From a virus (Duplodnaviria; Heunggongvirae; Uroviricota; Caudoviricetes): a stretch of DNA of 64,000 nt. The DNA is taken from IMG/VR virus record IMGVR_UViG_3300029998_000014; one strand, given 5' to 3'. Positions 14,410 to 14,815 of the stretch are shown one piece after another. The notes beneath the pieces were generated by a model that did not search any database, was not told the DNA's origin, and worked only from the letters and a program-made list of their open reading frames with translations. Position 1 is the stretch's first letter; every line of letters begins with the position of its first letter. Both the position numbers and the translations under genes were made by a program.

Positions 14410-14815
14410 TGGAGGTGGGCGGAGTCGAACCGCCGTCCAAACACGGATACGTAATAAGATTATACAGCTTAGTATTTTACAGTTACTTTTCTGGCGTTTT
14501 AATCTAAACAGCAAAACTTGGGCCTGTTTGGTTACAAACAAAGCTACACCATCTGGTGAGACCAGCATACTTAACAACCCTCAGAAAGGAGGCGATGTGT
14601 TCCAAGGCTTTTGCAACGAAGCTTAACGTCATGTTACAACTTTTCTGTTCAAAAGTAAGTTGCCAACTCGTCGCTATTAAGCAGCTGCCATAAAGGCAGT
14701 ACGAGCGAAAGAAATAGTTTTATTTCCAGTTATTGTTTGATCTCTGATTTAAGAGGGTGGTCTACCTCTGCTGTCTTATTATTTCTCTAACATGCTGTCG
14801 AAACCAAACACCCCC
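14410..14815 (-). ncRNA. ssrA: tmRNA (SsrA)
   Basis: The reverse complement begins GGGGGTGTTTGGTTTCGACAGCATG (canonical tmRNA 5' end) and ends GGACGGCGGTTCGACTCCGCCCACCTCCA (T arm plus acceptor with G3-U70). An internal tag frame ends ...GCT CGT ACT GCC TTT ATG GCA GCT GCT TAA TAG (…ARTAFMAAA**). Confidence 0.8.

Follow-up and report, generated by a model that had tools for sequence, protein, structure and literature searches.

A standard-form tmRNA with an apparently extended, host-type tag in an uncultured jumbo phage that reads TGA as tryptophan

The subject of this study is a gene for transfer-messenger RNA (tmRNA, ssrA) on the minus strand of a 64,000-nt stretch of Caudoviricetes DNA (IMG/VR record IMGVR_UViG_3300029998_000014), to which we refer as the window. 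In our judgement, its product is probably a functional one-piece tmRNA that belongs to the phage and descends from Bacteroidota; the gene resides in the tRNA-rich, non-recoded arm of a jumbo phage of at least 175 kb. Its tag looks like the tag of the presumed host phylum after loss of the stop codon and gain of eight codons, and the same genome uses TGA as a sense codon in another gene block. A first-pass annotation, which was made from the sequence alone, had placed a phage tmRNA with a noncanonical tag at 14410-14815; the RNA is real and lies on the minus strand. In the following, all coordinates are positions in the window unless a contig is named, and L-numbers (L066, L172 etc.) are labels of the loci and contigs that were compared with it.

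The tmRNA gene

The gene is recognized by two programs. The ARAGORN call spans 14409-14815(-) and gives the tag GNKTISFARTAFMAAA with two stops behind it, and the Rfam tmRNA family RF00023 matches 14407-14815(-) over the whole model (positions 1-374) with 107.3 bits (E=5.8e-41), where the gathering score is 47. As read from the sequence, the mature RNA extends from a G at 14815 to the discriminator A at 14410, which gives a full length of 406 nt. The canonical 5' end that had been noticed in the first-pass annotation reads GGGGGUGUUUGGUUUCGAC, and the other two hallmarks listed there, a tRNA-Ala-like domain with G3-U70 and a tag ending in AAA-TAA-TAG, can likewise be read in the sequence.

Both domains expected of an RF00023 member are represented. 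The tRNA-Ala-like domain has a 7-bp acceptor stem, in which the pairing of GGGGGUG with CACCUCC creates the G3·U70 alanine identity pair, as well as the discriminator A and a T-arm loop of the GUUCGAnUC type. The gene provides no more of the terminal CCA than its first C (at 14409), so the remainder must be added enzymatically. The mRNA-like domain consists of the leader …CAAUAACU|GGA…, 16 codons and UAA UAG. In these parts, the gene is structurally intact, and it has an open, terminated tag frame (Table 1). A decoy of the DS6A type, reduced to the tRNA-like domain (TLD), was considered as well and is ruled out by the full-length RNA with its intact frame.

Table 1. Features of the tmRNA gene and of the surrounding phage DNA (PK1, pseudoknot 1; ORF, open reading frame)
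Feature	Position in window	Strand	Basis
tmRNA (ssrA), one-piece standard form	14410..14815	-	ARAGORN, Rfam RF00023, sequence; identical in 4 assemblies
Acceptor stem 5' strand GGGGGUG, pairs with CACCUCC 14411-14417	14809..14815	-	sequence and covariance-model alignment
PK1 first stem AGAGG / CCUCU	14752..14769	-	fold; covariance-model alignment
Tag reading frame, resume codon GGA 14725-14727, encodes GNKTISFARTAFMAAA (16 sense codons)	14680..14727	-	ARAGORN, sequence
Tandem tag stops UAA UAG	14674..14679	-	sequence
Helix 5 hairpin spanning the 3' half of the tag; loop UUUAU 14690-14694	14666..14706	-	fold of window and L066 copies; alignments
T-arm GGCGG-UUCGACU-CCGCC	14418..14434	-	sequence; three compensatory stem changes vs L066
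Terminator-like hairpin GAACAACC-GAUA-GGUUGUUC + U5	14825..14849	-	sequence; 100% conserved in L066; not scored by simple scan
First of five tandem paralogous ORFs	14025..14393	-	ORF list; no Pfam/PHROG match; same arrangement in L066
tRNA gene array, same strand as tmRNA, 11 tRNAs in window	24..6391	-	ARAGORN
NAMPT, low-coordinate side of tmRNA	9298-10728	-	
NMN-adenylyltransferase/NUDIX protein (NadR), low-coordinate side of tmRNA	11639-12538	-	
UGA-suppressor tRNA, anticodon UCA, A1-U72, G73	52888..52961	+	ARAGORN (labelled 'SeC'); Rfam tRNA 62.9 bits; alignment with tRNA-Trp genes
PhoH gene with in-frame TGA at 56507	56078..56881	+	Pfam PhoH 193.8 bits, one stretch aa 62-259 across TGA at aa 144

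Phage location and conservation

The tmRNA is phage-borne and does not mark a prophage boundary, as the first-pass annotation had maintained. Four independent assemblies, which stem from different samples and have contigs of up to 140-175 kb, contain exactly the same 467 nt with the gene and both of its junctions. Phage genes lie on both sides and on the same strand (NAMPT and NadR on one, an AAA ATPase and an SPFH protein on the other), and the GC content of the window is uniform at about 30%. The absence of an integrase and of an att duplication, which had also been claimed, is borne out within the region covered: no integrase or recombinase was matched by Pfam among the window ORFs or the called genes of approximately 20 kb of added flank, and the 29-nt 3' end of the tmRNA occurs just once in the window, even with three mismatches allowed.

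Relatives were gathered through the neighbouring AAA ATPase, as a graded series of sequence identities; this protein has no close relative in IMG/VR. At 80% identity in the ATPase, L066 carries a syntenic tmRNA (Rfam, 88.3 bits) with the tag GNKTISFARTAVLAAA, and the two RNAs are 87.5-91% identical. Between them, there is no change in the 5' half, the first stem of PK1, the resume context or the tag frame, and most substitutions and indels fall into the region of pseudoknots 2 to 4 (PK2-PK4). The T-stem differs at three pairs, all of which are compensatory (GCGG/CCGC vs AGUG/CACU). In the tag, the sole differences are UUU AUG vs GUU UUG. They are all situated in the hairpin loop of helix 5 and therefore carry little information on selection of the peptide.

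A more distant relative, at 50% identity (L172/L178/L179), has the same tRNA order on a 178-kb IMG/VR contig, and one of its copies stems from the same sample as the window phage. Its tmRNA (L172:572-1780), which has the tag DNRNVINFVPRASVRAYNQMAA, was missed by both ARAGORN and RF00023: a group I intron (914-1762, about 849 nt; Rfam Intron_gpI, 98.5 bits) interrupts the T-loop at UU|CGAAU. Consequently, where these tools detected no tmRNA in the 10 kb to either side of the ATPase gene, namely in four contigs with 58-61% identity and in 36 JGI loci with at most 49%, the result applies to uninterrupted genes, since intron-split ones escape them; there was no group I intron match in those of the loci that were checked with Rfam. 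A 42-kb neighbourhood of the huge-phage record LR756500.1 is likewise free of tRNA and tmRNA genes. In summary, several but not all members of this phage clade have a tmRNA.

Ancestry of the RNA and its tag

The 5' 22-mer of the RNA, GGGGGTGYTTGGTTTYGACAGC, is found in the genomes of 63 species, all of which are Bacteroidota (Chitinophagaceae, Paludibacteraceae, Bacteroidales). The phage tmRNA is 61-66% identical to the tmRNAs of these bacteria, with the best match in a metagenome-assembled genome (MAG) of the Paludibacteraceae. Besides the identical 22-mer, it shares with the chromosomal tmRNA of the Paludibacteraceae and other Bacteroidota the design of the acceptor and T-arm and the resume context AUAACU|GG, and its first eight tag codons are parallel to those of the bacterial tag. 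By contrast, its tag is longer (16 residues vs 9) and has MAAA in place of ALAA at its end, its stop codon lies outside the helix-5 loop, and its PK2-PK4 region cannot be aligned. As the identity to bacterial tmRNAs does not exceed 61-66%, the capture would not have been recent; the comparison indicates a tmRNA of Bacteroidota type and ancestry that has probably resided in phages for a long time. Among the phages themselves, neither a blastn search of 50,697 phage records with the tmRNA nor a search of IMG/VR with the exact 5' 19-mer yielded a match, and looser scans of IMG/VR for the 5' and 3' motifs mostly returned unrelated permuted tmRNAs with tags of alphaproteobacterial type (…ALAA/…AVAA).

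The tags of the Bacteroidota are uniform. In the genomes that share the 5' motif, 49 of 51 tags have nine residues and end in A[M/L]AA (e.g. GNTQYAMAA, GNNTVALAA, GENNYALAA, GESNFAMAA); this count leaves out L150, an evident ARAGORN mis-call, and the other two of the 51 belong to permuted genes with long tags. Measured against this host phylum, the phage tag is indeed noncanonical, as the first-pass annotation had stated. Its first eight codons, GGA AAU AAA ACU AUU UCU UUC GCU, nevertheless parallel the GNNTVALA of the Paludibacteraceae in a codon alignment (shuffle p≈0.002). The helix-5 loop, where the canonical stop codon is normally positioned, reads UUUAU in the phage. Here, the stop is missing, and the frame runs for eight further codons along the 3' strand of helix 5 before it closes with …AUG GCA GCU GCU UAA UAG. 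Given this missing stop and the parallel between the first eight codons and the host tag, the phage tag looks like a GNNTVALAA tag of the host type that has lost its stop and gained eight codons.

Departure from the host-type tag appears to be common in viral tmRNAs of this kind. A search of IMG/VR with the same 5' motif retrieved 11 viral contigs, and a host-type tag is absent from all of them. The tags that they do encode range from 10-47 residues and often have an Arg near the C-terminus; several of the genes are circularly permuted (RF04321), and one standard-form gene (L181) has the tag …VSVKAAA. Host-type tags were thus found in 0/8 viral contigs with Bacteroidota-type tmRNAs vs 49/51 tags from bacterial genomes (Fisher p=2e-8), a contrast drawn from a small sample that was chosen by a single motif (L172-L182 from IMG/VR, L107-L166 from bacteria). 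The permuted form also occurs in two MAGs of Bacteroidales/Paludibacter (L112 and L148). A tag motif shared by the phages (I-[NS]-F-…-R-…) was considered and rejected as unproven: in shuffle tests, the similarity among phage tags was mostly not significant, and significance was reached solely for L112 and for the Paludibacteraceae tag.

Recoding of TGA

The first-pass annotation had placed the tmRNA in a genome that reads through a stop codon, and this assumption was correct: the phage uses genetic code 4, in which TGA encodes Trp. The clearest proof within the window is the PhoH gene, which gene calls with the standard code split in two (Table 1). Furthermore, five TGAs lie in frame in an ORF of the GNAT family, where aromatic or hydrophobic residues would be expected, and the large terminase subunit (TerL) has ten and still matches phrog_6681 over aa 41-657. 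In the right flank, coding coverage is 0.66 with TGA as a stop and 0.92 with TGA as a sense codon.

This usage is not evenly distributed. Read-through lengthens ORFs specifically in the plus-strand block, where the apparent 'TGA ends' continue for 51-129 codons. The genes on the minus strand end in TAA (61), TAG (13) or TGA (8) and have no long continuation past TGA, with the exception of one HNH gene. TGG accounts for 0.66% of codons in plus-strand genes, as compared to 1.49% in minus-strand genes. TGA serves as a sense codon in plus-strand genes of the block from 47.6 to 64 kb and its continuation in L171 (PhoH, GNAT, TerL, portal), whereas hardly any TGA is in frame in the minus-strand arm; this suggests a code switch between gene blocks. 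The exceptional HNH endonuclease gene (357-1136(-)) lies inside the tRNA array and is alone on its strand in having a TGA that is clearly in frame (…CDNTK[TGA]MGEPIPLETHHIDG…).

The phage also encodes its own putative suppressor. Despite its ARAGORN label, the tRNA with the anticodon UCA is an ordinary 74-nt cloverleaf. Its A1-U72 pair and G73 are shared with the tRNA-Trp genes to which it was aligned and are identity elements for tryptophanyl-tRNA synthetase (TrpRS), and judging from its sequence it is a Trp-like suppressor tRNA, cognate to the use of TGA for Trp. No gene for release factor 1 or TrpRS was found in the region of the phage that was examined, nor was any release-factor domain among the window ORFs and called flank genes (approximately 84 kb). 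A tRNA(CUA) is found in L104, a relative of the window phage, as it is in L172.

Two further ideas were dismissed. A host with code 4 or code 25 as its cause is at odds with the avoidance of TGA in the minus-strand arm, the phage's own suppressor tRNA, and the Bacteroidota affinities of both the tmRNA and the phage relatives. Likewise, backup stops behind TGA-ending early genes do not qualify as an adaptation to read-through, since their distances of 0-11 codons are, by our own estimate, about what chance would produce at 30% GC.

The pattern is known from TGA-to-Trp recoded phages that infect standard-code hosts (Borges et al., 10.1101/2021.08.26.457843). The window phage resembles these in its low GC content, the UCA suppressor, the concentration of in-frame TGAs in the structural and packaging block, and the arm that remains compatible with the standard code. 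It differs in that the surveyed phages come from the gut and in that the survey does not mention tmRNA.

Proposed function and alternatives

We infer that the tmRNA is expressed and charged, that it depends on the SmpB of the host, and that it benefits the phage. It would be transcribed together with the minus-strand genes, trimmed by the host's RNase P and 3' processing enzymes, and completed at its 3' end by the host's CCA-adding enzyme. Host alanyl-tRNA synthetase would charge it with alanine via G3·U70, and SmpB and EF-Tu would deliver it to ribosomes that have stalled where an mRNA ends without a stop codon; since no SmpB was seen in approximately 84 kb, this SmpB is presumed to come from the host. 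Translation would then resume at GGA, add (A)GNKTISFARTAFMAAA and terminate at UAA(UAG), whereby the ribosome is freed. Infection would raise the number of non-stop complexes, as mRNAs decay and, possibly, as the suppressor tRNA of the phage causes UGA stops to be read through. Together with at least 24 tRNAs, a Met-tRNA formyltransferase and chaperonins, the tmRNA could thus maintain the pool of available ribosomes. A raised capacity for ribosome rescue during mRNA degradation would appear to be the most economical purpose, and the same reading has been offered for huge phages by Al-Shayeb et al. (PMC7162821).

The immediate surroundings of the gene are informative about its likely transcription. 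The terminator-like hairpin upstream, whose loop holds the stop codon of the preceding ORF, ends 9 nt before the 5' end of the tmRNA, and the spacer behind it differs from that in L066 by a 1-nt indel. Downstream, the ATG of the next ORF (14025..14393) follows 15 nt past the 3' end, and the two are probably co-transcribed. Given the hairpin on one side and the ORF on the other, the tmRNA is probably cut out of a longer transcript. A scan for sigma-70 promoters found such sites to be no more frequent than in shuffled sequence.

Several observations weigh against a functional rescue RNA. There is no recognizable promoter between the upstream hairpin and the 5' end of the tmRNA, and no SmpB domain was found among the window ORFs and called flank genes, which represent approximately 84 kb of a genome of at least 175 kb. 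In the covariance-model alignment, the second stem of PK1 is weak, with mismatch marks leaving 3-4 of 6 pairs, and the PK2-PK4 region aligns at low posterior probability with many non-canonical marks, a region in which folding tools are blind to the pseudoknots. The A-L/M-A-A C-terminus of the host phylum, a typical yet not strictly defining feature, has been lost, and the phage tag ends in F-M-A-A-A (V-L-A-A-A in L066). Finally, no tmRNA was detected in the four contigs at 58-61% ATPase identity, in a range of ±10 kb around the marker gene, which suggests that the gene is dispensable in the wider clade.

The first-pass annotation had proposed that the tmRNA could manage stalling at TGA or retag proteins. 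Given that sense TGAs and a Trp-like UCA tRNA are present in its genome, it might be a dedicated part of the code switch. It would clear ribosomes that, owing to the suppressor, read past the UGA stops of host and early phage messages up to the mRNA ends, or that stall at UGA as long as the suppressor is scarce, and would endow their products with a phage-specific tag. Non-stop complexes are known to arise from stop-codon read-through, and a mismatch of codes engages tmRNA (PMC6207430). Both tag stops, UAA and UAG, are valid under code 4, although UAA is the usual stop of tmRNAs regardless of recoding. Similar constellations exist elsewhere: the tmRNA-bearing relative L172 has a CUA suppressor, and in four related IMG/VR contigs (L042, L043, L046, L061), a permuted tmRNA with the tag ANDSSFALAA lies about 730 nt from a tRNA(CUA). 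However, such co-occurrence is anecdotal and has no baseline frequency to be compared with, the suppressor in these cases is a different one (CUA), and other relatives have no tmRNA. Moreover, tmRNAs are present in phages with no reported recoding, such as mycobacteriophages and Bacillus phage G (PMC4131195), they go unmentioned in the survey of recoded phages (10.1101/2021.08.26.457843), and our literature search found no paper that links phage tmRNAs to recoding. In the window itself, the two genes are 38 kb apart, on opposite strands and in different gene blocks, with the tmRNA in the non-recoded arm beside the tRNA array, which argues against a tight coupling. While a specific coupling of the tmRNA to UGA suppression is plausible, we thus regard a dedicated role in the code switch as rather unlikely.

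This idea can be extended to a wider scenario, in which Bacteroidota jumbo phages keep a tmRNA lineage of their own in standard, intron-split and permuted form, with tags selected for a phage-specific fate, and couple it to suppressor-driven code switching in order to clear the non-stop ribosomes that arise from UGA (or UAG) read-through. We mention it as a speculation and consider it unlikely.

The tag contrast described above is also what one would expect if the tmRNA antagonized or modified the quality control of the host, by competing with the host tmRNA for SmpB and stalled ribosomes and by adding a tag, with MAAA or LAAA at its end in place of A[M/L]AA, to which the proteases of the host respond weakly or in another way, so that the rescued products are spared or sent to a different protease. 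There are precedents for both aspects: the TLD-only phage tmRNA of DS6A inhibits the host tmRNA (PMC4131195), and AA-to-DD changes at the end of the tag slow degradation (PMC6207430). Yet the …MAAA end still consists of small non-polar residues and could remain a C-terminal degron, the differences between the two phage copies sit in an RNA loop and need not reflect selection on the peptide, and the tags of different phages mostly lack significant similarity. No protease or adaptor gene was found nearby either, and such an activity seems quite improbable to us.

The loss of the helix-5-loop stop with its eight-codon run-on, the weak second stem of PK1, the divergent PK2-PK4 region and the absence of the gene from several relatives might also be the marks of decay in a passenger that was captured from a Bacteroidales host and fell into disuse after losing its stop and canonical tag. 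Decay would not be expected to produce T-stem changes that are compensatory instead of random, or to spare the 5' half, the first stem of PK1, the resume context and the frame between phages with 80% identity in a marker protein. In addition, the new in-frame …AA-UAA end has been retained, and tmRNAs persist in the wider clade, even with a self-splicing intron. We therefore hold a decaying passenger to be very doubtful. Lastly, although tmRNA genes are common integration sites (PMC4383910) and such cases occur in IMG/VR, the notion that the tmRNA belongs to a host chromosome and marks the junction of a prophage or genomic island, or that the locus is an assembly chimera, is effectively refuted by the lack of an integrase and of a duplicated 3' end in the region covered, the same-strand phage genes on both sides at a uniform GC content, the identical junctions in four assemblies, and the at most 61-66% identity to any bacterial tmRNA found.

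Comparison with known systems

Phage tmRNAs have been reported repeatedly (PMC4131195, PMC7162821), and the novelty implied by the title of the first-pass annotation was overstated. As TGA-recoded phages are known as well, the locus is a well-documented further example and not a new kind of system. Its closest counterparts are the tmRNAs of huge and jumbo phages (PMC7162821; Mar_Mega_1, 10.1101/2021.07.26.453748), which were also detected with ARAGORN in genomes of well over 100 kb, are accompanied by large sets of tRNAs and further translation genes and presumably act in ribosome rescue during infection; some huge phages encode SmpB in addition (PMC7162821). In contrast to these, the present case is documented with respect to its tag, the probable derivation of this tag from the host type, a syntenic and covarying homolog, and the TGA-to-Trp recoding of its genome.

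The ssrA genes of cluster C mycobacteriophages (Bxz1, Catera etc.) and of Bacillus phage G (Hudson et al., 2014, PMC4131195) likewise encode one-piece tmRNAs in lytic phages with genomes of myovirus size, next to many tRNA genes. They are, however, of actinobacterial or Firmicutes type, have no sequence similarity to the window tmRNA that blastn could detect among the 50,697 phage records, and recoding is unreported there. The TLD-only tmRNA of DS6A (PMC4131195) resembles the window tmRNA as a phage-borne, tmRNA-derived RNA that might compete for SmpB, but the window gene retains a complete mRNA-like domain.

All three forms of tmRNA genes are known, including those with introns in the T-loop (PMC11915505). 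The split in L172 (UU|CGAAU) corresponds to T-loop position 3, which has been reported solely from the class Bacteroidia (PMC11915505). The window gene, by contrast, is uninterrupted, and with about 849 nt, the L172 intron is longer than any in the 2025 database, all of which are under 700 bp (PMC11915505).

The window locus is a well-anchored example for the study of what phage-encoded tmRNAs do, with an unambiguous phage origin, a covarying homolog and an ancestry in the host phylum. Its points of interest are the reconstructed origin of the extended tag, the difference between viral and bacterial tags, and the code-switching jumbo phage that carries it. If the link to recoding were true, code-switching phages would also have to manage the ribosome stalling that results from stop-codon suppression, and the tag would offer a handle for following phage-directed trans-translation. 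At present, the main value lies in annotation and as a starting point for a comparative survey, and the tag contrast (0/8 vs 49/51) is the most reusable lead.

Genomic context

The phage is an uncultured jumbo phage with a genome of at least 175 kb: contigs that bear its flank genes reach this length, and one is in the 0.2-1 Mb class. By its DUF8224 protein (phrog_1735), it is nearest, among annotated phages, to the Cellulophaga phages phi17:2 and phi4:1 and to the 462-kb record of an uncultured 'huge phage', with which the protein has 62.6% aa identity. In addition to NAMPT and NadR, genes for a deoxyribosyltransferase and a HAD phosphatase are found on the low-coordinate side of the tmRNA, and those for the AAA ATPase (phrog_2376) and the SPFH protein (phrog_200) on its high-coordinate side, all on the minus strand. 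Farther along the window, we find genes for the DUF8224 protein, a glutathionylspermidine synthase, a ribonucleotide reductase, PhoH and GroEL/GroES, and just past its right end those for TerL and the portal protein.

On public contigs, the left flank adds 13 tRNA genes to the array, for a total of at least 24. It also contains genes for a Met-tRNA formyltransferase and a YqeY/GatB-like domain protein close to the array (L170:12831-13775 and 19661-20032), further signs that the phage invests in translation. Some of the tRNA genes are odd and may contain introns or be otherwise atypical. These are a 90-nt 'tRNA-Tyr(AUA)' and an 86-nt tRNA that is seen by Rfam alone (24-113(-) and 28938-29023(-)). 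Two more lie in L170 (11725-11806 and 11811-11892), one tRNA of undetermined anticodon and one tRNA-Trp(CCA) of 82 nt whose variable region is long.

Two sets of tandem paralogs have no match in Pfam or PHROG. The first, directly downstream of the tmRNA, comprises five small ORFs (12538-14393(-)) of about 122-153 aa with the N-terminus M-x-I-x-N-F-K-I. The second adjoins the tRNA array and consists of four copies (1207-3075(-); KYKVGD…NYTP).

Finally, the divergent gene blocks meet near position 48000, minus below and plus above, where the GC skew changes its sign and coding density is low (40-48 kb); replication might start here, or the stretch might have a regulatory role. Two matches to self-cleaving ribozymes of the RAGATH-1 hammerhead type are situated in the same stretch of low coding density (43215-43283(-) and 45697-45774(-), with 67.6 and 59.4 bits), and a Pistol ribozyme is matched at 24005-24066(-) with 41.6 bits, all three above the Rfam thresholds.

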